From contig JAXJVI010000099.1 in assembly GCA_036308615.1 (NCBI GenBank), positions 1-39,748 of the forward strand: 39,748 nucleotides of DNA. The letters run 5' to 3'. Shown here piece by piece: positions 3,269 through 37,803 of this stretch (its first letter is position 1; each line of letters begins with the position of its first letter). The translations under genes were made by a program, and so were the position numbers. The notes beneath the pieces were generated by a model that was given only the letters and a program-made list of their open reading frames with translations, was not told the origin of the DNA and did no database searches. Source of the stretch: Acutalibacteraceae bacterium. GTDB taxonomy: Bacteria > Bacillota > Clostridia > Oscillospirales > Acutalibacteraceae.

Positions 3269-4141
3269 GCGTCAAAAGTGATTGACACTACCTCTTCCAA
3301 AGAAACCCGCTCTTTAATTTATCTCAGCGACAATACTAACGGCATTTCAAATTTCAACGCATCAATCCTCGCCAAACGAGCTCAGAGTGATATTTTGAAT
3401 CTGTGGATGAAAAATAGGACATAAATGTACCAGCTTAGGTTGCCAGTACAACCGGTTTTGAAATATGAAATCCGTCACATATCAGTTGTGCGTAAATATG
3501 CTTTTCAAAAGCCGCACCTATAGGTCCGGGATTACGGTGGTGTAGCGGCGGCATAGCATTATAGGTGTGAGTAAGGCAGTTTGCACCGCATTCTATTGCC
3601 TTAATTGCAGTTTCATAATCGCAATCGGTATGCCCAATAGAGACAACACATTCGGGTGACACCGCTTTAATAAATTCCATACTGCCCGAACACTCCGGGG
3701 AAATAGTAATCATTTTAACATTTTTAAAACGCTCGAAATCCTTTACCGATGGGTTTTTAATATACTTTTCATTCTGTGCACCTTTGTGTTTTGGTGAAAT
3801 GTACGGTCCCTCAAAATGGAATCCCAAAATATTTGCACCCGCAAAATCGGTTTTGGCATTTGTCACTTTTTCGAGCACATCATATCCCATAATCATAGTA
3901 GTCGGAAAAAAGATGTTGTACCGTGTTCGGCGTAAAATTTGCACATCGGCTCAAAATCAGCGTCCATCGTGTCCATACCAATACAACCGTGTGTATGAAC
4001 ATCAATAAGTCCGGGAATAAGCCGTTTACCGCCTGCGTCAATATCTCCGTTATTTCGGTTACTTTCAACCGAAACTATTTTACCGCCGTTTATAACTACA
4101 CTTTTCAATTCACCGCTTATTAAAGCGTTATAAATTATCAT
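3269..4141 (-). pseudogene. nagA: N-acetylglucosamine-6-phosphate deacetylase, frameshifted and 3'-degraded
   Basis: The N-terminal ORF 3893-4141 contains LIPGLIDVHTHG and ends ...AEHGTTSFF-RLL*. The NagA sequence continues in another frame as FFPTTMIMGYDVLEKV...GFHFEGPYIS...SIGHTDCDYE. The shift lies in an A6 run at 3906-3911. The second frame stops at 3435, about 235 of the ~380 codons expected. Only degenerate NagA-like fragments (IKERVSLEEVVSITFDA, comp 3269-3319) follow. Confidence 0.85.
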
Positions 4142-13359: not shown

Positions 13360-13537
13360 AGACCCAATCTGTAGTATTAACTAACCCGCCGTGACCTGCG
13401 TCAATAATTATTGTCTGCCGTTCGGTTACCGTACCGCCGACTGTGATATATTCATATCCCTTTGCTACCGCGGTGCTGAGTATTGCGAGGCACAAAACAA
13501 CCGCTAAAATCACCGCAATTTTTCTTTTTAAAATCAC
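13360..13537 (-). pseudogene. Displaced 5' fragment of a cwlD-like gene (59 codons)
   Basis: Reverse translation from GTG comp(13535-13537), with the same GGAG RBS as cwlD, gives MILKRKIAVILAVVLCLAILSTAVAKGYEYITVGGTVTERQTIIIDAGHGG-LVNTTDWV*. The amidase body is missing. Confidence 0.85.
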
Positions 13538-13597
13538 ATTATCACTCCAGTCGCTTCTGTTTTAAAAATATGATTTTTGAAGGACGGATAGAACATA
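13381..13597. repeat. Right copy of the 217-bp direct repeat
   Basis: See the left copy at 1641-1857. Confidence 0.95.
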
Positions 13598-29728: not shown

Positions 29729-30154
29729 ATGTCAAAGAAAAAGGGAATAATCGCGGAATTTAAGGAGTTTATCTCAAGAGGAAATGTAATCGATCTTGCG
29801 GTCGGCGTTGTAATGGGCAGTGCTTTTACGGCTATCGTAACCTCCCTTGTAAACGACATTATAATGCCGGCAATCGGAGTGCTTTTCGGAGGAATAGATT
29901 TCACTTCTTTAAGGCTTGTAATCCGTGAGGCGACCGAAACCACCGAGGAGGCGGCTATCGGCTACGGCAACTTTATTCAGTGCGTGGTTAATTTCCTGCT
30001 TATTTCAATGGTTATCTTCCTTGTTATCAAGGGTATGAACGCCTTTAAGCGCAAGAAAGAAGAAATTGTCGAGGAAGCAAAGCCCGCAGAGCCCAGCGAA
30101 GAGGTACTGCTCCTGCGCGAAATCCGGGATTCGCTTAAAAACTCAAAGGAATAA
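29729..30154 (+). CDS. mscL: Large-conductance mechanosensitive channel
   Basis: 141 aa: FKEFISRGNVIDLAVGVVMGSAFTAIVTSLVNDIIMP. Confidence 0.95.
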   Translation: MSKKKGIIAEFKEFISRGNVIDLAVGVVMGSAFTAIVTSLVNDIIMPAIGVLFGGIDFTSLRLVIREATETTEEAAIGYGNFIQCVVNFLLISMVIFLVIKGMNAFKRKKEEIVEEAKPAEPSEEVLLLREIRDSLKNSKE

Positions 30155-30158
30155 AACA

Positions 30159-30202
30159 GAGGACGGTCTGTGTCTTAAGAGAGAGGACAGAGAGCCGTCC
30201 TC
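30159..30202. repeat. Long imperfect hairpin with GAGGACGG / CCGTCCTC base (degenerate member of the GGGACGG repeat family)
   Basis: GAGGACGGTCTGTGTC (30159-30174) pairs with GACAGAGAGCCGTCCTC (30186-30202). No T-run follows. Confidence 0.75.
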
Positions 30203-30263
30203 GTTCATCTATTAGATGAAATATTCAATGGAATAATAATTTTTTATGTTTAAGGAGATTGTT

Positions 30264-31166
30264 ATGAAAAAGATCTTGGTTTTAGGCGGCACAACCTTTG
30301 TTAGCAAATATGTGGCGGATTATTTTGTTAATCGTGAATATGAAGTTTATGTACTTAACAGGAATACAAAACCGCAGGTTAAAGGTGTAAAACTAATCAC
30401 GGGAGATAGACATAACTTAGGTGATATATTAAAGGGTATACATTTTGATATTGTGGCAGATATAACAGCTTATGATGCACAGGACATTATTGACTTATAT
30501 AATGCAATTGATTCCTTTGAGCAGTATATTATGATAAGTTCAAGTGCAGTGTACCCGGAGTACGGTGTACAACCGTTTCTTGAAGAGTCTGAGAAAAATA
30601 TAAACAAATTTTGGGGTAGCTATGGAACCAATAAGCTTTATGCGGAAAATGCTTTATTGGAGAGAGTTCCCGATGCATATATTTTGAGACCGCCGTATTT
30701 ATACGGACCTATGAATAATGTTTATAGAGAGGCATTTGTGTTTGATTGCGCTAAGGCGGACAGAAAATTTTATTTGCCGAAAGACGGAGCAATGAAAATA
30801 CAACTATTTCATGTCAGGGACTTATGTAAGTTGATGGAAGTGATTATTGTTGATAAACCGTCTGAGCATATTCTGAATGTGGGAAATTCCGAAGCAATAT
30901 CTATAAAAGATTGGGTTATAAAGTGTTATGCTTGTTTTGATAAAGTTCCGGCGTTTGTGAATGTTTATGGTGATATAGAGCAGAGAAATTATTTCAGTTT
31001 TTATAACTATGAATACTATTTAGATGTACAGCGTCAACATAAAATATATTCAGATACAATTTCTTTAGAAGAAGGGCTAAAAGAATCGGCAGAGTGGTAT
31101 CTTGCAAATGAAACAGAAGTAAATAAGAAACCGTATTTTGATTATATTGATACGAATTTGGTTTAA
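30264..31166 (+). CDS. NAD-dependent epimerase/dehydratase family protein
   Basis: Start at MKKILVLGGTTFVSKYV with an AAGGAG RBS. The Rossmann fold has a Gly-rich loop, and YGTNKLYAE fits the YxxxK catalytic motif. A hand count of one 60-nt line gives about 28% G+C. Confidence 0.8.
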   Translation: MKKILVLGGTTFVSKYVADYFVNREYEVYVLNRNTKPQVKGVKLITGDRHNLGDILKGIHFDIVADITAYDAQDIIDLYNAIDSFEQYIMISSSAVYPEYGVQPFLEESEKNINKFWGSYGTNKLYAENALLERVPDAYILRPPYLYGPMNNVYREAFVFDCAKADRKFYLPKDGAMKIQLFHVRDLCKLMEVIIVDKPSEHILNVGNSEAISIKDWVIKCYACFDKVPAFVNVYGDIEQRNYFSFYNYEYYLDVQRQHKIYSDTISLEEGLKESAEWYLANETEVNKKPYFDYIDTNLV

Positions 31167-31168
31167 GT

Positions 31169-31194
31169 TGGGACAGGTAACCGTCCACTTTTTA
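31169..31194 (+). terminator. Terminator-like hairpin (GGACAGG-TAA-CCGTCC) plus T-run
   Basis: TGGGACAGGTAACCGTCCA followed by CTTTTTA. The stem has two bulges. Confidence 0.5.
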
Positions 31195-31215
31195 TGTCAA
31201 ATTGCATAAACCAAA

Positions 31216-31393
31216 GGCCCCCAAGCCTCACGGGGGCTGTCGCGGCAATGCGCCCCTTGCCTAAAGGGGAGAGGGCCAACCGGTCAGGTTGGCGAGGGGA
31301 TTCCCGTGACTGGAGGATACTTAAGGTGCAGAGAGCCTAATATATCCCTCCACCGCCGTTCGGCGGTCCCCCTCCCTTTAGGCAAGGGAGGCT
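31216..31393. repeat. GC-rich multi-hairpin intergenic element (MITE/REP-like)
   Basis: A chain of short GC hairpins: GCCCCC..GGGGGC, CCCCTT-GCCTA-AAGGGG, CCAACC-GGTCA-GGTTGG, CCGCCG-TT-CGGCGG, CTCCCTT-TAGGC-AAGGGAG. The arms 31252-31275 and 31368-31392 are inverted copies of each other. Confidence 0.7.
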
Positions 31394-31486
31394 CTTATTT
31401 AAAATGTATTTAATGCAGGACAGGGTTGCTTCAGTTCTCTCTGCCTGCTCTTAGGCAAAAAAGGAACGAAAAAAATTATTTTTATA

Positions 31487-31515
31487 TTGACAAATCGCAA
31501 ATATAGTAATATTAT
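31487..31515 (+). promoter_or_regulatory. Promoter of the FMN-riboswitch leader
   Basis: TTGACA (31487-31492), 17-nt spacer, TATTAT (31510-31515). Confidence 0.6.
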
Positions 31516-31523
31516 ATTAACAT

Positions 31524-31694
31524 AATCTTCAGGGCGGGGTGTGATTCCCCACCGGCGGTAAAGCCCGCGAGCCTTTTTGGTTGATTCGGTGAAACTCCGA
31601 AGCCGACGGTTACAGTCCGGATGAAAGAAGAATGTATATGTATTTGCATTTTTACGCCCTCACTTTCGTGGGGCGTTTCTTCTTTTTCTTTTAA
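31524..31694 (+). promoter_or_regulatory. FMN riboswitch (RFN element) with intrinsic terminator
   Basis: TCTTCAGGGCGGGGTGTGATTCCCCACCGGCGGTAAAGCCCGCGAGC...GGTGAAACTCCGAAGCCGACGGTTACAGTCCGGATGAAAGAAGA matches the RFN consensus. The terminator is ACGCCCTC..GTGGGGCGT plus a T-run (31654-31694). Confidence 0.92.
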
Positions 31695-31724
31695 TTCCCC
31701 TGAAAAAAGAAAGGAAAATGTAAA

Positions 31725-32336
31725 ATGAAAAAACAAAATTTAATCAGAGGTATTGCGGTAAGCGCAGTTATGGGAGCGCTCGGCTTTGTGCTTATGCTCC
31801 TTGAATTTCCGCTGCCCTTTATCATTCCGTCTTTTATCAAGCTTGATTTTTCGGAAATTCCCGCAATAATCACCGCCTTTGCCTTCGGCCCGCAGTACGG
31901 AATATTGGTCTGCCTTATTAAAAATCTGCTCCACCTTTTCGTCACCACCTCGGCGGGTGTGGGAGAGCTTTCAAACTTCCTTTTGGGAGCGGTTTTCACC
32001 GGCGTTGCGGGGCTTATCTATATGAAGCACAAGGACCGCAAGGGAGCACTTGTAGGTGCGCTTGTCGGCTCCTTTGCTATGGCGGCTGTAAGCGTTGTCA
32101 CCAACTACTTTGTGGTTTATCCTGCCTATGTGGTGCTTTACGGTATGCCGATGGAGGCTATTATCGGAATGTATCAGGCTATTTTGCCCGCGTCCGACAC
32201 CCTGTTAAAATCCCTTTTAATCTTCAATCTTCCCTTTACCTTTATTAAGGGTATAATTGACGCCGGCGTTTGCTTTGCGGTTTATAAGAGATTATCCCCG
32301 ATACTAAAGTTCGGATTTAAAAAGCAGAACGGATAA
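31725..32336 (+). CDS. ribU: ECF-transporter S component for riboflavin (RibU/FmnP type)
   Basis: 203-aa membrane protein directly downstream of the FMN riboswitch. Confidence 0.85.
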   Translation: MKKQNLIRGIAVSAVMGALGFVLMLLEFPLPFIIPSFIKLDFSEIPAIITAFAFGPQYGILVCLIKNLLHLFVTTSAGVGELSNFLLGAVFTGVAGLIYMKHKDRKGALVGALVGSFAMAAVSVVTNYFVVYPAYVVLYGMPMEAIIGMYQAILPASDTLLKSLLIFNLPFTFIKGIIDAGVCFAVYKRLSPILKFGFKKQNG

Positions 32337-32345
32337 AATTTCTTA

Positions 32346-32373
32346 TTGACAAACAGAAATAATGTGTTACAAT
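32346..32373 (+). promoter_or_regulatory. Promoter of the S-box leader
   Basis: TTGACA (32346-32351), 16-nt spacer, extended -10 TGTTACAAT (32365-32373). Confidence 0.6.
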
Positions 32374-32396
32374 AGTAACCGTAAAATTAAATATGT

Positions 32397-32533
32397 CCTT
32401 ATCAAGAGCGGCGGAGGGAATCGGCCCTGTGATGCCCGGCAACCTGATGGTTTTATCAAGGTGCTAATTCCGACGGATTATCCGAAAGATGAGGTTTTGT
32501 GCCGCTTGCCTTTCGGTGAGCGGCATTTGTTTT
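32397..32533 (+). promoter_or_regulatory. SAM-I riboswitch (S-box) with intrinsic terminator
   Basis: CCTTATCAAGAGCGGCGGAGGGAATCGGCCCTGTGATGCCCGGCAACC...GGTGCTAATTCCGAC...AGATGAGG matches the S-box consensus. The terminator is TGCCGCT..AGCGGCA plus TTTGTTTT (32500-32533). Confidence 0.92.
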
Positions 32534-32575
32534 CATCAGTATATGTATATAGGACAAATAGGTTCTATTCCTAAT

Positions 32576-32833
32576 GTTGGGGTTTCAACAGTTCTCGCCT
32601 CCCTCTGACGAGGGAGGTGCCGAGGGACGAGGCGGAGGGAGAGAAAAAAGGGACAAAAGCATTAATAAAGCCTTTTTTGACTACCCTCAGTCGCCTATGA
32701 CCCTTAAAAAGTCTCTCCCTCAGTCTGCGATGCAGACAGCCGCTGACGGCGGCGGTCCCCTCTGTCACTTCGTGCCATCTCCCCACACTGTGGGGAGTCA
32801 CCCTCGTCAGAGGGAGCCAAATGAGACCCCAAC
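32576..32833. mobile_element. 258-bp GC-rich MITE-like element with terminal inverted repeats, inside the metK leader
   Basis: Left end: GTTGGGGT...CTCCCTCTGACGAGGG. Right end: CCCTCGTCAGAGGGAG...ACCCCAAC. Internal hairpins include GTCTGC-GATG-CAGAC and TCCCCA-CACTG-TGGGGA. No coding potential beyond a start-less read-through frame. Confidence 0.75.
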
Positions 32834-32876
32834 TTTTGCAAAAGAACCGACAAATAAAAACGGAGGAAAAATAAAA

Positions 32877-34064
32877 ATGTCAAAAATGTTATTTACATCT
32901 GAATCGGTCACCGAGGGTCATCCCGACAAGGTCTGCGACCGTGTTTCGGATGCTGTGTTAGATGCGATACTTGAAAGAGACCCCAATGCCCGTGTTGCCT
33001 GTGAGACCTTCTGCACCACAGGCAGTATCACGGTTATGGGCGAAATTAGCACAAGCTGTCAGGTTGATATTCCGCAGATTGCGCGGGATGTGGTCTGCGA
33101 GATAGGCTATAACAGCCCCGAGGCGGGCTTCGACGGCAACACCTGCGCGGTTATGACGGCTATTGATAAGCAGTCCCCCGATATTGCTATGGGGGTTGAC
33201 AATTCCCTTGAATTTAAGGACGGTCAAGAGGATAGGTACAATCTTAACGGCGCGGGGGATCAGGGTATGATGTTTGGTTACGCCTGTGACGAAACGCCGG
33301 AGCTTATGCCTTTGCCGATTTCCCTTGCGCATAAAATGGCAAAGCGCTTGACCGAGGTCAGAAAAAGCGGGGAGATCGGTTACTTAAGACCCGACGGCAA
33401 AACTCAGGTTACCGTGGAATATGAGGACGGAAAGCCCCAAAGAATAGACGCGGTTGTTGTGTCTTCACAGCACAGCGCCGCGGTTGATTTAGGAACACTT
33501 CGCGCCGATATTTTGGAAAAGGTGATCAAGCCTACAGTTCCCGAAGAGCTGTTTGATGAAAACACAAAGGTTTACATAAACCCGACAGGACGGTTTGTTG
33601 TCGGCGGCCCCGCGGGAGATACGGGACTTACGGGGCGCAAAATAATAGTCGATACCTACGGCGGCTTTGCCCGCCACGGCGGCGGAGCCTTTTCGGGCAA
33701 GGATCCCACAAAGGTTGACCGCAGTGCCGCCTACGCCGCGCGTTATATAGCAAAGAATATCGTAGCGGCGAAAATAGCCTCAAAATGCGAAGTGCAGTTG
33801 GCATACGCGATAGGCGTAGCCCGACCTGTTTCGGTTATGGTAGATACCTTTGGCACGGGTAAATACGATGACGAAAAAATCGCCGAGGCGGTAAAGAAGG
33901 TCTTCGATCTGCGCCCGTCCGCTATTATCGATACCTTAGAGCTTAGGAAACCGATTTACAAACAGCTCTCTGCTTACGGTCATATGGGCAGAACCGACCT
34001 TGATATTCCGTGGGAAAGAACCGACTGCATAGACGAGCTTATTAAGGAATTGAACGAAGGGTAA
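32877..34064 (+). CDS. metK: S-adenosylmethionine synthetase
   Basis: Start at [21 protein letters not shown] after a [36 protein letters not shown]. 395 aa. The ORF-track start at 32574 is a read-through of the MITE. Confidence 0.97.
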
Positions 34065-34133
34065 AGCTTTTAGGTATATGGGTAACAGCACAGAGAACCG
34101 TTGCCCGATTTCCCCATATTAGGAGTTTTTCAA

Positions 34134-35192
34134 ATGAATATTATACACAAAGAGGTAGGCTTTATTGCCGCAGAAAACGGTGTTTCCCGCGCGGGTGAGG
34201 GCGCCTTTGTCCGCTTAAAAGACGGCAGAATAATGCTTGCGTATACAGAATATTATACCGCTAATACCGGTGATGACGCTCCTGCAAATATTGCCGCAGT
34301 ATATTCACGAGATAACGGCGAAAGCTGGGGAAAGCATCGCATACTTCTGGAAAAGGGTGCAGACGATTGCAATATTATGTCAGTAAGCTTTTTGACAGAA
34401 GGCGAAGAATTAATTATTTTTTATTTGAAAAAGTATGTGGTGAACGGTAAAGTGGTTTGTATACCGTTTCTTCGCCGCTCCGGTGACGACGGCGAAAGCT
34501 GGAGCGAAGAACAGCGTATAGGCAAAAGAGACTTGTATTATGTAGTGAACAATGACCGCGTTATAAGGCTGAAAAGTGGAAGAATAATCGTTCCCGCCGC
34601 AATAGTTGACCCATTTACGGGCAGACCGAAAAACGGAGCCGCATTATGTTTTATTACTTCTGATGACAACGGCTATACCTGGACGGAGCAAAAACAGGAG
34701 TTATCGCTCCTGTTTGATAACCGAATGGGGTTAGAAGAGCCGGGACTGTACGAGCATAATGACGGCAGCATATGGTGTTATATACGCACTCATTTAGGCT
34801 GTCAGTATAGCTCGGTTTCTTATGACGGGGGAGAATCCTGGTCGGCGCCTGAACCTATGCCCTTTTTTAGCTCGCCTGCCTCGCCTATGCTTGTGAAAAA
34901 AGTCTGCAACGCAACGGTTGCAATATTTAATCCCATTCCCGGTTACACCTCAAGACCGGGGGAATTATGGGGCAGAACGCCTTACCTTTTGGTAATAAGT
35001 AAAACAGACGCGTATCCGCACAACGGTGAAGGATTTACTGTTAGTTATATGCTTGAAAATGATCGCAGTAACAATTATTGCTACCCTGCCATACTTGATA
35101 ACGGCACAGACTTTCTCATTGCGTATTATCATTCCAACGGAACGGGCTATCCGCTCAACAGTCTGAAAATAGTAAAAGTATACATAAGGTAA
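34134..35192 (+). CDS. BNR/Asp-box repeat protein, sialidase-like beta-propeller, no signal peptide
   Basis: Start at MNIIHKEVGF after an AGGAG RBS. Four Asp-boxes: SRDNGESW, SGDDGESW, SDDNGYTW, SYDGGESW. Confidence 0.8.
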   Translation: MNIIHKEVGFIAAENGVSRAGEGAFVRLKDGRIMLAYTEYYTANTGDDAPANIAAVYSRDNGESWGKHRILLEKGADDCNIMSVSFLTEGEELIIFYLKKYVVNGKVVCIPFLRRSGDDGESWSEEQRIGKRDLYYVVNNDRVIRLKSGRIIVPAAIVDPFTGRPKNGAALCFITSDDNGYTWTEQKQELSLLFDNRMGLEEPGLYEHNDGSIWCYIRTHLGCQYSSVSYDGGESWSAPEPMPFFSSPASPMLVKKVCNATVAIFNPIPGYTSRPGELWGRTPYLLVISKTDAYPHNGEGFTVSYMLENDRSNNYCYPAILDNGTDFLIAYYHSNGTGYPLNSLKIVKVYIR

Positions 35193-35259
35193 TCAAGGGG
35201 ACGGTGTGAAACCACTGAAAAAAGGGCACTGAAAAAGTCAAGGCTTTCGGCGTTGTTTG

Positions 35260-35284
35260 AAGACAGGGGACGGTTCTCTGTCCT
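35260..35284 (+). repeat. Hairpin repeat, type 1 (AAGACAGGGGACGGTTCTCTGTCCT)
   Basis: This 25-mer is identical to 37003-37027 and 37054-37078. It abuts the duplicated metK core exactly. Confidence 0.9.
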
Positions 35285-35373
35285 ACGGTCATATGGGCAG
35301 AACCGACCTTGATATTCCGTGGGAAAGAACCGACTGCATAGATTTGCTTTCTAAAGAATTGACCGACAGGTAA
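35284..35373 (+). pseudogene. Displaced metK 3' end (last 29 codons + stop)
   Basis: 35284-35342 is identical to 33975-34033 (59 bp). The tail encodes ...[12 protein letters not shown], versus ...[12 protein letters not shown] in the intact gene (22 of 31 nt identical). Confidence 0.92.
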
Positions 35374-35402
35374 GCATTTTAAGCCGTCGGGTCATAACAC
35401 AG

Positions 35403-35468
35403 GGGACGGTTAGAAATCGCTGAAATCTCCTTTTTTTCAGTGGCTTCTAACCGTTCCTTATTTTTTTA
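35403..35468 (+). terminator. Long-stem rho-independent terminator (presumed original metK terminator)
   Basis: GGGACGGTTAGAAATCGCTGAAA pairs with TTTCAGTGGCTTCTAACCGTTCC, followed by TTATTTTTTTTAAT. Confidence 0.8.
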
Positions 35469-35477
35469 ATTTTAGTA

Positions 35478-35514
35478 TTGACATTTATTATTAATTGATA
35501 TATAATATCATTAA
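35478..35514 (+). promoter_or_regulatory. Consensus sigma-A promoter overlapped by an AT-rich imperfect palindrome (candidate Fur-family operator)
   Basis: TTGACA (35478-35483), 17-nt spacer, TATAAT (35501-35506). The palindrome is TTAAT(T)GATAT-ATA-ATATCATTAA at 35491-35514. Confidence 0.65.
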
Positions 35515-35540
35515 GACAGGATTGCAGGGATTGAATATAT

Positions 35541-35969
35541 ATGATGAAACGGAAGACAATTCAGCGTTCTTTGGTATTGGACGCTGTGAACAAATTACAT
35601 AATCACGCAACGGCGGACGAGATATACGATGCCGTTATCATTGAACACCCTAATATCAGTAAGGCGACTGTATATAGAAACTTAAATGCTTTATCGGAAA
35701 TGGGAGAAATACGCAAATTGGAAATCCCGGGCGGAGCCGACCGATATGACCACTGTACCCATAATCACTGTCATATAAAATGTGACAAATGCGGCCGCCT
35801 TTTCGATGTGGATATGGATTATATCTCGGGCCTCGAAAATAACATAAGGGACACCCGCGGATTTGATTTTAGAGGCTATGATATTATTTTTCGCGGAACT
35901 TGCCCTGATTGCAAAAAGCATTCGTCATCTCAAAAAGAGAAAGATGTATCACAGAAAAACCGCGACTGA
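35541..35969 (+). CDS. Fur-family metalloregulator (Zur/PerR-like)
   Basis: 142 aa: winged helix ATVYRNLNALSEMGEI, HCTHNHCH, CDKCG...CPDCKK structural Zn site. Confidence 0.85.
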   Translation: MMKRKTIQRSLVLDAVNKLHNHATADEIYDAVIIEHPNISKATVYRNLNALSEMGEIRKLEIPGGADRYDHCTHNHCHIKCDKCGRLFDVDMDYISGLENNIRDTRGFDFRGYDIIFRGTCPDCKKHSSSQKEKDVSQKNRD

Positions 35970-36005
35970 GCGTTTTTCATATAATAAATATTTAGGAGGA
36001 TTGTT

Positions 36006-36572
36006 ATGAGAAGCATTACCAAATTAGATTTGCAGTACGCGCATCGATTTTACGGATTTAAGGGAGAAGCACAATATTTGCATGGACATACCGGTGTTCT
36101 TACCATAGAAGTTGAGGATACCGTCGAGCCGGGCGTAAATATGGTTTTTCCTTGTAATGAAATTCAGAAGACAGCTTGGGAGGTTCTCAAGAACTTTGAC
36201 CATGCATTGATTTTGAGAGAGGACGATCCTCTCCTGCCTGCTATCCTTGATGTTTATGAAAAGCAGGGAATCAAAGCCGGCGCGCCTACCAACAAGATGA
36301 AGGGTCCCGCGTTTAAGACAGAGCTTGCAACGGCTTATCCCGATTGCCGTTTGGTAGTGACCAAGGAAACTATGACGGTTGAAGGTATGATTAAAATCGT
36401 GTACGACCTTCTTAAGGATAAGCTGAATATTGCCAAGCTTACCTTTATAAGCGGCGTAAATGCGGCATCCGAGGAGTTTGAGACAAGAAAAGAAATTGAC
36501 CGCTGTCCTTTGTGCGGCATAGCGCTTAATGAAAAAGGCGTTTGCCCCAAGTGCGGATACAAAAAGAATTAA
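36006..36572 (+). CDS. 6-pyruvoyl-tetrahydropterin synthase/QueD-like protein with C-terminal zinc ribbon
   Basis: YAHRFYGFKGEAQYLHGHTGVLTIEV (His triad pattern H...HGH), NFDHALIL, C-terminal CPLCGIALNEKGVCPKCG. Confidence 0.7.
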   Translation: MRSITKLDLQYAHRFYGFKGEAQYLHGHTGVLTIEVEDTVEPGVNMVFPCNEIQKTAWEVLKNFDHALILREDDPLLPAILDVYEKQGIKAGAPTNKMKGPAFKTELATAYPDCRLVVTKETMTVEGMIKIVYDLLKDKLNIAKLTFISGVNAASEEFETRKEIDRCPLCGIALNEKGVCPKCGYKKN

Positions 36573-36588
36573 ACATTTCCTAATCGTG

Positions 36589-36626
36589 GAGCCAAGAGAA
36601 CCGTCCCCTTGGCTCTTAAAATTTTT
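36589..36626 (+). terminator. Hairpin repeat, type 2, serving as terminator of the QueD-like gene
   Basis: GAGCCAAG-AGAACCGTCCC-CTTGGCTC followed by TTAAAATTTTT. It has the same 11-nt loop (reverse orientation) as the type 1 repeats. Confidence 0.75.
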
Positions 36627-36642
36627 CTTGACACCCCTAAAA

Positions 36643-36963
36643 TCAGTCATCAACGATATCTAAAAATGGCAAGATTATAACTATCTCAAATATTAAAAAT
36701 AACAATAGCAATATTAAAACAATTTTGAATAGATACATTTTTTTTAATATACATAAAATGATTATCGCAGGAACAGATAACAATTTGACAAACCACAAAA
36801 CCCTGCTATATTTAACAGTCAGGTGCTTTTTACAATTGGGGCACTTATGTAAATATCGCCAGTCAAGGAAGAACATTTTTCTCCAGTATGACAATTTAGT
36901 GCCACAGATAGGGCAATAATTATTTTTAATTCCATTTAAATATCTTTTGAATAATCTATTCAT
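36643..36963 (-). CDS. Small zinc-ribbon membrane protein
   Basis: Start at MNRLFKRYL with an AAGGAG RBS. CPICG...CPNCKK, then two hydrophobic segments. Very AT-rich. Confidence 0.6.
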   Translation of the reverse strand: MNRLFKRYLNGIKNNYCPICGTKLSYWRKMFFLDWRYLHKCPNCKKHLTVKYSRVLWFVKLLSVPAIIILCILKKMYLFKIVLILLLLFLIFEIVIILPFLDIVDD

Positions 36964-36989
36964 ATTTTCTCCTTTAAGGTGCATCAAAA

Positions 36990-37197
36990 TAAGACAGGGA
37001 ATAAGACAGGGGACGGTTCTCTGTCCTGATTTGAGGGTAAGACAGGGGACGGTAAGACAGGGGACGGTTCTCTGTCCTGATTTGCGGATAGCGAAGATTA
37101 CGAAAAATTTTTAGAAATATTGAAGAGCCAAGAGAACCGTCCCCTTGTCTCCCTAAGAAATATTGAAGAGCCAAGAGAACCGTCCCCTTGTCTCCCC
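36990..37197. repeat. Composite array of the hairpin repeat: 2 full + 2 partial forward units and 2 reverse 43-bp tandem units
   Basis: Forward units: 36991-37000 (partial), 37003-37033, 37039-37053 (partial), 37054-37085. Reverse tandem 43-mers: 37111-37153 and 37154-37196 (TAAGAAATATTGAAGAGCCAAGAGAACCGTCCCCTTGTCTCCC). Confidence 0.92.
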
Positions 37198-37803
37198 AAC
37201 TGTTTTATGCTTACCGCCCGGAATGTCATAGCGGATTGTTTCCTTAAAGTTCGGAACAAAATCCACAAATATGCCGATTTCTTCTTTAATTTCCCGTTTG
37301 GCGGTCTGTTCCTCGGTTTCAAAGGCTTCCATATGTCCTTTAGGAACGCTGTAGGTTTGCGACCTCCGCTGAAAAAGACATAGAATTTTTATTCCGCCGT
37401 TTTCTCTTTTGAAAACGACTGCACCGCAGGATTTTTGATAAATCGCCTCTATCTCTGTTTTATAATATTGCTCCTGAAAATGCACCTGCTCGGCGATTTC
37501 GTTCTGCGTGAAATTCATGCCCTCCGGAGCCATAACCAGCTTGTCCTCAACATCATTTTCACGGTGAACAATTCCAATGATTTCACCTGTGTATTCAGTC
37601 ACTGGCTTATCCACACCCAGCAAATAAACATCAAGTTCCTCGCCGTCACCACCCAAAATACCCGGAATATATCCGTAGTTAATTTGATAATTTAAGCTAT
37701 AATTTTCTTTCTTATGTACATAACCTATCGGACGATCAATTTCTATCCGCACAGTTTTGCCGAGATAGGATTTTACAAGCGCTTTTCTTTCTTCAAATGT
37801 CAT
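37153..37803 (-). CDS. Inorganic-pyrophosphatase-like domain fused to an Ap4A-hydrolase-like Nudix domain; 3' end replaced by repeat sequence
   Basis: The N-half NYGYIPGILGGDGEELDVYLLG...IIGIVHRENDVEDKLVMAP matches the family I PPase pattern NYGFIP..DGDP.DV. The C-half carries the Nudix box KGHMEAFETEEQTAKREIKEEIG. Homology ends at ...GGKHKTV, and the last 14 codons (GETRGRFSWLFNIS) are encoded by the repeat array. Confidence 0.7.
   Translation of the reverse strand: MTFEERKALVKSYLGKTVRIEIDRPIGYVHKKENYSLNYQINYGYIPGILGGDGEELDVYLLGVDKPVTEYTGEIIGIVHRENDVEDKLVMAPEGMNFTQNEIAEQVHFQEQYYKTEIEAIYQKSCGAVVFKRENGGIKILCLFQRRSQTYSVPKGHMEAFETEEQTAKREIKEEIGIFVDFVPNFKETIRYDIPGGKHKTVGETRGRFSWLFNIS

Follow-up and report, generated by a model that had tools for sequence, protein, structure and literature searches.

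A family of hairpin repeats with a conserved 11-nt loop, associated with RAYT-type Y1 transposase genes, in an Acutalibacteraceae bacterium and other Clostridia

The DNA studied here, referred to as the window, is a stretch of 39,748 nt from an Acutalibacteraceae bacterium (contig JAXJVI010000099.1 of assembly GCA_036308615.1). From about 30 kb onwards it contains, in this order, mscL, an epimerase gene, a gene for a RibU-like transporter, metK, a BNR/sialidase-like gene, a second version of the metK 3′ end, a Fur–PTPS block, a small zinc-ribbon membrane open reading frame (ORF) and a PPase–Nudix ORF. An original prediction, made from the letters of this stretch alone, held that a family of hairpins with an invariant 11-nt loop marks the junctions of the accessory genes in this region, and pointed to a 14-mer, GGGGACGGTTCTCT, that occurs there six times. 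All six occurrences were found at the positions and on the strands that had been given, and the statement that such a recurrence is not due to chance stands as well, since there was no match in 100 shuffles of the window (0 expected).

In each of the six copies, named A to F (Table 1), the 14-mer is made up of the loop GGGACGGTTCT, which is invariant across all of them, and the closing pair of a hairpin. Two kinds of stem enclose this loop: the type 1 stem of copies A, C and D has 5 bp (GACAG/CTGTC), the type 2 stem GAGCCAAG/CTTGGCTC has 8 bp, and the three positions at which the types differ have all changed in a compensatory way, as described in the prediction. The division into two types holds for type 1 and for copy B, which alone has the perfect type 2 stem; copies E and F, in contrast, are imperfect, with GAGACAAG in place of GAGCCAAG and hence an A·G mismatch. 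As a single substitution separates them from B, the idea that E and F are recombinant hybrids of the two hairpin types was rejected. Scored with R1, a covariance model of the hairpin that rests on 150 distinct copies, the six window copies reach 35-46 bits (E <= 1e-9). Copies C and D are a tandem duplication with a period of 51 nt (a 38-nt unit at 37002-37039 and 37053-37090), and E and F are another, of 43-nt units with E first, so that the six copies amount to about four independent sites. Between C and D lies a partial unit that consists of the 5′ arm and the first seven loop bases, and a truncated unit like it is present in another contig, L223. Copy B is flanked by the convergent PTPS-like gene and the zinc-ribbon ORF.

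The prediction had proposed a genome-wide pattern search; a search in contigs of many species took the hairpin well beyond the 7-kb stretch in which it was first seen. The 19-mer ACAGGGGACGGTTCTCTGT was found at at least 120 loci in one-genome-per-species contigs, for a chance expectation, by our own arithmetic, of ~4 in 596 Gb, and with so many loci in many taxa a purely local duplication was rejected. Among the matches listed, the taxon labels include Lachnospiraceae, Blautia, Oscillospiraceae, Acutalibacteraceae and Eubacterium, and further Syntrophomonadaceae, Peptococcaceae, Atribacterota, Flexilinea and one Desulfovibrio metagenome-assembled genome (MAG); leaving aside the four pairs that the 19-mer imposes, the arms of these listed matches form 69 different stems, mostly complementary over 7-10 bp. 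Matches of the shorter GGGGACGGTTCTCT in viral contigs are mostly due to chance, and about ten loci there have real hairpins with the same loop and differing complementary arms, e.g., TTGTCAGG/CCTGACAA and GGGGACAAG/CTTGTCCCC. A variant that sets the same core between GGAAC/GTTCC arms with extra unpaired bases was seen in two viral contigs (L007 and L014). In the phage or prophage contig L014, three 39-nt units in tandem and, after them, an inverted copy lie in intergenic DNA (e.g., 1782-1920 and 3618-3660), and a further contig, L083, holds eight copies of a similar variant.

Pairing was then counted in an alignment (A1) of the 150 distinct copies over a 10-bp stem. The fraction of cells with a proper pair was 78.7%, compared with 64.9% in shuffled controls and 40-58% for slid partner positions, and changes on both sides of a pair were found in 267 cells (119 after shuffling) and in eight of the ten pairs. 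The covariation score was 0.391, against 0.159 for shuffled and 0.12-0.15 for slid partners, a value that none of 500 shuffles reached, and the signal was concentrated in pairs 5-8 counted from the loop. The compensatory change first noticed between two stem types, for which a check with a covariance model had been suggested, thus extends to the stems of many genomes. The copies are also largely extragenic, dispersed singly or in pairs between genes: 27% of 195 lie inside ORFs of at least 120 aa, compared with a background coverage of 82%.

The partner of the hairpin was recovered by unbiased clustering of the ORFs around the 120 loci listed, which gave a recurrent protein of ~250 aa starting with MPRxARKKSxSGIYHIMLRGIN; its gene is immediately flanked by hairpins in four contigs (L116, L193, L204 and L225), and no tnpB-like neighbour was found among the ORF clusters around the hairpin loci. 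The family matches Pfam Y1_Tnp and reaches 79.1 bits, at a cutoff of 80, against the NCBIfam equivalog REP_Tyr_transpos (‘REP-associated tyrosine transposase’, or RAYT, where REP stands for repetitive extragenic palindrome). Its sole match in the PDB is the E. coli TnpAREP (4ER8), and not the TnpA of IS608 or ISDra2. An alignment of the family (A2; 247-257 aa) shows the motifs N59-H60-x-H62, F98-Q99 and Y119-I-H-x-N-P124, followed by a C-terminal tail resembling a helix-turn-helix (HTH), with HTH_23 recognized in five of 11 members (best E 0.001) and HTH_28 at a best E of 0.0025. The family comprises 1,196 clusters at 50% identity (E <= 1e-30) and is common in Clostridia, with labels also from other anaerobe phyla. 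Y1 (RAYT) genes, which the prediction had suggested looking for elsewhere in the genome, were recovered from contigs of other genomes, with the hairpins on their flanks.

The reciprocal test started from the enzyme: 80 metagenome genes were picked by their protein alone, and their surroundings were then searched with R1. An upstream match within 150 nt was present at 60 of the 72 genes with enough DNA, on the strand of the gene (+) in 58 of them and at a modal distance of 36-38 nt before the ATG; downstream, 54 of 78 genes had a match, 53 of these on the opposite strand (-), beginning no more than a few bases from the stop codon. Both flanking copies were found at 44 of 70 genes and at least one at 62 of the 70, while the density of matches fell from 5.9 per kb near the gene ends to 0.19 per kb elsewhere. 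The layout follows one fixed pattern, running from the 5′ arm through GGGACGGTTCT and a 3′ arm that leads into TTGACA, then 17 nt, TATAAT, AGGTGA and the ATG, and after the gene and its stop codon comes the inverted hairpin. The 3′ arm of the upstream copy thus overlaps the -35 box of the gene’s promoter, which suggests, as a speculation, autoregulation. At the RAYT loci examined (L228-L307) the upstream copies mostly read GGTTCT-[G/A]TGT, with the closing pair broken and a loop of 13 nt, and the downstream and dispersed copies read GGTTCT-CTGT; this difference may be an asymmetry between left and right ends. Where hairpins occur as neighbours at most 150 nt apart, a + copy is followed by a - copy in 28 cases and the reverse order does not occur (0 cases), with seven pairs in the ++ and eight in the -- arrangement. 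Because their polarity equals that around the RAYT gene, the pairs of + then - look like units that lost the gene.

The prediction had also stated that neither a RAYT nor an integron integrase is present in the window. An intact RAYT (searched by tblastn) and an integrase are indeed absent, but a 45-nt relic had been missed. A tblastn search with the RAYT returned from the window only this piece of 15 aa, FADSEDYEKFLEILK, corresponding to codons about 27-41, which is not significant by itself (E 0.52). It is, however, identical at 14 of 15 positions to residues 27-41 (FVDSEDYEKFLEILK) of the family member P0097; in 107 of 120 family members collected by a protein search its best match falls at the homologous position (26); and window positions 37087-37119 share 33 nt of uninterrupted identity with the P0097 gene itself, which in contig L227 belongs to a full unit with + hairpins, promoter, gene and - hairpin. 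The relic has C and D (+) to its left and E and F (-) to its right, in the polarity and orientation of the intact units. Positions 37002-37197 are thus the remnant of a RAYT locus, a decayed unit with two + copies, a 45-nt gene piece and two - copies. The neighbouring PPase–Nudix ORF (37153-37803, minus strand) takes its last 14 codons and its stop from copy F, and its Nudix match spans only positions 5-80 of the 134 in the profile; for these two reasons the PPase–Nudix gene was probably truncated at its 3′ end at the relic locus.

The positions of the hairpins could be compared with a sister lineage (contigs L309-L314), whose MetK is 93% identical and whose DNA aligns with the window at 88-93%. 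Two segments of the window are absent there. At the left one, mscL of the sister lineage continues straight to the FMN (flavin mononucleotide) riboswitch region, and the synteny with L309 ends at 30154. The right one, the BNR gene with copy A, stands between two versions of the metK 3′ end (33975-34064 and 35284-35373) whose last 10 codons diverge; the duplicated end starts directly after copy A, which marks the border of the BNR insert with the metK tail, and the similarity to the sister lineage restarts at 35284. This arrangement resembles what a single-crossover (Campbell-type) integration or a homology-assisted illegitimate recombination would leave behind. Look-ups of the exact MetK and BNR proteins gave no match; that of PTPS led to a single 1.7-kb Logan contig, which is equal to window 35284-37032, and its ends are explained by the duplication of the metK tail and by the tandem REP units. 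The Fur–PTPS block, which is inverted in the sister lineage, stops in the window 2 nt short of copy B. No strong hairpin is present at the sister-lineage loci, and all strong sites of the window (A, B and the cluster C-F) lie at points where the gene order differs between the two. REPs generally accumulate after genes and mark rearrangement points. The proposal that the hairpins mark accessory-gene junctions is thus borne out in that there are synteny breakpoints at all strong copies, whereas its link to cassette acquisition is a correlation only; the coincidence is one of position, and a causal role of the hairpins in the rearrangements is putative.

The degenerate relatives that the prediction had listed around these copies are individually weak. 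With R1 they gave E values of 0.012 (30144-30183), 0.049 (35387-35433), 0.24 (30175-30217), 0.43 (34078-34120), 0.64 (35182-35230) and 4.3 (31161-31203), and on this last value the candidate at 31171-31187 was rejected as a family member. Two of them, 35197-35226 and 35396-35464, are real relatives despite their scores. Both are forms of a composite variant, GGGACGGTT(C)-GAAACCACTGAAAAAG, that recurs beside RAYT genes in five contigs (L230, L243, L255, L262 and L267) and in L243 folds into a hairpin whose stem has 16 bp and whose loop is the core. The first is a half-unit and coincides with the 3′ end of the DNA that is common to the BNR genes of other genomes. The second, an inverted dimer, is probably the original terminator of metK, and a degenerate counterpart stands in the sister lineage (L309) at the orthologous site after metK, so that such relics outlast speciation. 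The pair at 30159-30202 (fold -14.5 kcal/mol, z -4.1) lies directly 3′ of the mscL stop codon and forms the left edge of the 1.3-kb insert with the epimerase gene, and the flipped copy at 34086-34105 is paralogous to 35395-35413. A special mechanism for ‘flipped’ cores (at 34094, and after the BNR gene in L317) was rejected as unneeded, because the stems are palindromic and an inverted hairpin reads alike except for its loop.

Table 1. Hairpin copies, their relatives and the associated junction features in the window
Feature	Position	Strand	Evidence or remark
Segment absent from sister lineage	30155-31456		Degenerate dimer (left edge), epimerase gene, unrelated repeat
Degenerate inverted pair of REP-like units, one long hairpin	30159-30202	both	14.9 bits (+), 11.2 bits (-)
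Segment absent from sister lineage	34067-35283		BNR gene and copy A
Degenerate flipped copy cacagAGAACCGTTGCC after functional metK	34086-34105	-	R1 E 0.43, weak alone
Composite-variant half-unit GGGGACGGTGTGAAACCACTGAAAAAAGGG	35197-35226	+	Repeat analysis; 5 nt past BNR stop
REP copy A, type 1 (GACAG-GGGACGGTTCT-CTGTC)	35262-35282	+	R1 match 35251-35293, 37.9 bits, E 1.3e-10
Duplicated metK 3′ end	35284-35373	+	First 58 nt identical to 33975-34032, then divergent
Composite-variant inverted dimer	35396-35464	+	Long hairpin then T-run; -15.3 kcal/mol, z -6.0
Fur–PTPS block	35466-36586		Inverted in sister lineage, where it lies past gltBD, 6.4 kb from metK
REP copy B, type 2, perfect 8-bp stem	36589-36615	-	R1 36.5 bits; DNA fold -8.4 kcal/mol, z -3.7
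REP copy C, type 1	37005-37025	+	R1 46.4 bits
Partial unit taagacaggggacgg (5′ arm and first 7 loop bases)	37038-37052	+	Repeat analysis
REP copy D, type 1	37056-37076	+	R1 43.3 bits
RAYT gene relic, codons about 27-41, peptide FADSEDYEKFLEILK	37081-37125	+	Similarity to P0097
REP copy E, type 2 with one A·G mismatch	37125-37151	-	R1 35.0 bits; fold -5.3 kcal/mol, z -4.0
REP copy F, same as E	37168-37194	-	R1 35.5 bits

Other observations in the same DNA concern the genes around the hairpins. The BNR/sialidase-like gene was found with ~90% DNA identity in three unrelated contexts, namely the window, L315 (7988-9095) and L317 (3482-4533). The shared DNA corresponds to window 34121-35222 only, i.e., to the ORF with ~16 nt upstream and ~30 nt downstream; in all three contexts the core motif stands within about 10 nt past the stop codon and the similarity ends there, and in the two other contexts a related motif is found upstream as well. 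A second repeat, GC-rich, ~230-310 nt long and unrelated to the hairpins, is present in the window after the epimerase gene (31207-31440) and in the interval from the SAM riboswitch to the metK start (32561-32848), where it gives metK a spurious N-terminal ORF extension of 101 codons (32574-32876); in the sister lineage (L309, 6829-7137) it occupies another place and orientation, flanked by the FMN riboswitch and the ribU-like gene, and it looks like a mobile element of the miniature inverted-repeat transposable element (MITE) kind. A direct repeat of 213 nt with 89% identity, 11.7 kb apart (1643-1855 and 13383-13595), is likewise unrelated to the hairpins. Contig L308 (3265-5058) encodes a MetK homologue of 597 aa in which the middle and C-terminal S-AdoMet synthetase domains are doubled, in a neighbourhood unlike that of the window. 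The FMN riboswitch (31521-31636), which precedes the ECF/RibU-like transporter gene, and the SAM riboswitch before metK (32396-32495) both score well above the Rfam gathering score and are ordinary.

Taken together, the hairpin family with its covarying stems, its fixed association with one gene, the relic of that gene in the window and the position of the copies at breakpoints lead us to read the hairpins, with a probability of roughly four in five, as a large REP/REPIN-like family partnered with a ~250-residue RAYT-type Y1 (HUH) transposase, which we infer to have driven their mobilization. This corresponds to one of the options left by the prediction, a REP/RAYT-like repeat, and what decides for it is the fixed flanking of RAYT-type Y1 genes together with stems that covary in many genomes. 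The ends of IS200/IS605 elements are recognized as folded single strands. By analogy with their TnpA and with the E. coli TnpAREP, the RAYT would recognize the folded single strand of the hairpin, cut it and rejoin it. The determinant of recognition would be the invariant loop GGGACGGTTCT with the inner ACAG/CTGT pairs, for which the HTH-like C-terminal tail is a candidate reader, and it is plausible that a protein reads the loop in a sequence-specific manner. Such cutting and rejoining might both spread the repeats and leave behind sites prone to recombination.

Several points weigh against this reading. Binding and cleavage by this group of RAYTs are carried over by analogy; the conserved motif lies in the loop, and there is no GTAG-type tetranucleotide at the 5′ foot, so that the recognition mode of E. 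coli is not simply transferable and recognition must differ in detail. The type 1 hairpins of the window are weak (5 bp, -3.7 kcal/mol, z about -1), and the conservation of the inner pairs in the collected copies is in part a product of the 19-mer search, which fixed the inner four of them. The junctions of tandem partial units lie at offsets anywhere between 1 and 33 nt, none of them preferred, for which reason no cleavage site is deduced from them. The evidence from the source genome is that of the 39,748-nt window, and, since the labels were taken from MAGs, an isolated unexpected taxon may reflect contamination.

The same unit of hairpin, gene and hairpin could instead be a selfish insertion sequence (IS) of the IS200/IS605 type, the solitary hairpins and the +- pairs being its MITE-like deletion derivatives. 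The unit is compact (~0.9 kb) and has its own promoter, the exact occurrence of ACAGGGGACGGTTCTCTGT across phylum labels suggests horizontal spread, contigs classified as viral hold copies too, a deletion intermediate is present in the window, and the group 1 RAYTs, to which we return below, are the most IS-like of all, with 6.3% duplicates and some members on plasmids (Bertels 2017, PMC5581495). We nevertheless consider this account unlikely, as the flanking hairpins are inverted (+ upstream, - downstream), whereas both ends of an IS200/IS605 element lie on one strand, as the tyrosine motif, YIHQNP, has the Y...NP form of class 2 TnpAREP and not the Y...Q of IS200 (PMC6006769, Table 1), and as the structural match is to TnpAREP alone and no tnpB adjoins the gene. 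A bolder extension would see in the RAYT and its hairpins a system that shuffles cassettes as single strands, with the core of the loop as the crossover at the 3′ end of promoterless cassettes; it draws on the BNR gene, whose similarity in three contexts breaks off at the core motif shortly past the stop. If this were true, genes bounded by REPs would be cut out and pasted by an HUH enzyme, with an outcome like that of integrons by a different chemistry, and the largest RAYT group would gain both a partner repeat and a role; we hold it to be doubtful. That the BNR ORF travels through three contexts with the motif just past its stop is superficially cassette-like and would also be in line with attC-like sites of an integron-type system with a tyrosine recombinase, another option of the prediction. 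This one has next to nothing in its favor beyond that: no integrase is found among the recurrent neighbours of the hairpins either, the recurrent neighbour being a Y1 HUH enzyme, and attC sites conserve the R″/R′ boxes of their stem and vary in the center, which is the reverse of what is seen here.

The hairpins might also act mainly as RNA, protecting or insulating the 3′ ends of messengers or offering their loop to an RNA-binding protein, with the link to the transposase being secondary. Most copies lie after genes and outside ORFs, the loop could lengthen the stem by G-U pairs on the GGGACGGUUCU strand, which the complementary strand cannot do, and many REPs have been argued to be transcribed (Di Nocera 2013, PMC3733652). 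This is very improbable in our view, since the fixed inverted placement at both ends of a transposase gene is not predicted by it, the window copies occur on both strands relative to their neighbouring genes, and no Rfam family matches the hairpins, the two riboswitches being the only Rfam matches in the window. The remaining option of the prediction, that the hairpins are intrinsic terminators or palindromes derived from them, which recur by convergent constraints, can draw on the several copies that follow stop codons and on the composite dimer at 35396-35464 with its T-run. None of the six copies, however, was detected in a terminator scan of the window or is followed by a T-tract, one class of copies lies upstream of a gene’s promoter, and an invariant 11-nt loop in distant taxa is not a property of terminators, which leaves this option with hardly any weight.

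For work on such genomes, a RAYT-partnered repeat would give biochemists a definite substrate for an unstudied group of enzymes, which probably differ from E. coli TnpAREP in reading the loop rather than the foot, and it would be a tractable case in which to ask whether repeats merely mark rearrangement points or take part in them. In Clostridia MAGs from gut and rumen, the hairpin would serve as a marker of repeat-driven assembly breaks and of spurious small ORFs (with peptides such as GTVLCP, EPSPCL and RTVP).

Among known systems, the closest is that of REP/REPIN and RAYT, the ‘REPtron’ of E. coli, Pseudomonas and Stenotrophomonas. There, too, short extragenic palindromes in many copies accompany a single Y1 HUH gene flanked by inverted copies, form dimers with a preferred orientation, have stems that covary within and between lineages, and stand after genes and at rearrangement points. 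The hairpins described here agree with it in being extragenic palindromes, present in many copies across genomes and with compensatory stems, in flanking a RAYT by inverted copies and in forming oriented dimers; that the RAYT binds and cleaves them as single-stranded DNA would follow by analogy. They differ from it in that an 11-nt loop and the inner stem are conserved rather than GTAG/GTGG at the 5′ foot, in the loop length of 11-13 nt instead of the 2-5 nt of typical REPs, in an enzyme of ~250 aa with an HTH-like C-terminal tail, in the fusion of the upstream copy to the -35 box of the gene, and in their hosts, which are Clostridia and other anaerobes rather than Proteobacteria. IS200/IS605 elements (IS608, ISDra2) share with the present system a Y1 HUH enzyme of the same superfamily, subterminal hairpins and non-autonomous palindromic derivatives. 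They occur as many identical gene copies. Their left and right ends are unlike and lie on one strand, their Y motif ends in Q and tnpB is a common neighbour, in contrast to the inverted flanks, the Y...NP motif and the lack of tnpB seen here. An attC site has conserved R″-L″/L′-R′ boxes, extrahelical bases, a variable center and an IntI nearby, the reverse of the present pattern, and for an intrinsic terminator one would expect a GC-rich stem, a short loop and a T-tract, of which only the composite dimer has a T-run.

Canonical GTAG-type REPs (subclasses 2.2, 2.4, 2.5, 2.7 and 2.8) carry their tetranucleotide 0-2 nt 5′ of the stem and have loops of 2-5 nt (PMC6006769), whereas the alignment of the hairpin copies shows no conserved 5′ tetranucleotide outside the stem. 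CGTC-tagged REPs have a terminal CGTC head, a stem of 8-9 bp, a loop of 4-5 nt and a CCA tail, and come without a transposase (PMC3733652); here CGTC occurs nowhere but in the loop, as read on the complementary strand, the loop length is 11 nt and there is an associated transposase. The hairpins therefore fall outside the definitions of GTAG-type and CGTC-type REPs, of IS200/IS605 ends and of attC sites. The enzyme, on the other hand, appears to fit the group called TIRtrons or TIRYT (PMC3733652), subclass 2.1 (Quentin 2018, PMC6006769) or RAYT group 1 (Bertels 2017, PMC5581495), as judged by the published motifs (PMC6006769, Table 1) and not by the authors’ HMMs; the signature of subclass 2.1 consists of NHxH, ‘FQ’ instead of ‘WQ’, Y[IV]HxNP, a median length of ~238 aa and an HTH_23/HTH_28-like C-terminal tail (PMC6006769).

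In many TIRYT genes the flanking inverted repeats share GGGGWSAS, and some of these terminal inverted repeat (TIR) families are dispersed as dimers or clusters (PMC3733652); GGGGACGG agrees with the GGGGWSAS consensus string, with which alone it was compared, at seven of eight positions (G for A at position 7). Group 1 has been reported in Clostridia, with flanking 16-mers that are only moderately frequent (Bertels 2017, PMC5581495). The TIRYT, subclass 2.1 and group 1 accounts cited here name no Clostridial example and do not give the motif, the literature matches to the exact GGGACGGTTCT are unrelated primer lists, and in the literature searched there was no description of a Clostridial repeat with covarying stems, an 11-nt loop, fusion to a promoter and the + then - pairing. 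The kind of system is thus known, and this particular repeat, which was not found elsewhere, appears new to the searchable literature. That a RAYT-like gene should come with partner repeats is what a specialist would expect, yet none had been reported for the largest group, and the recognition element is an unusual one. Automatic and manual searches had revealed no REP-like structures beside subclass 2.1 genes (Quentin 2018, PMC6006769), whereas clear hairpins with covarying stems stand here at 62 of 70 genes, so that a partner repeat emerges for the Clostridial branch of group 1 (subclass 2.1), the largest group of RAYTs.

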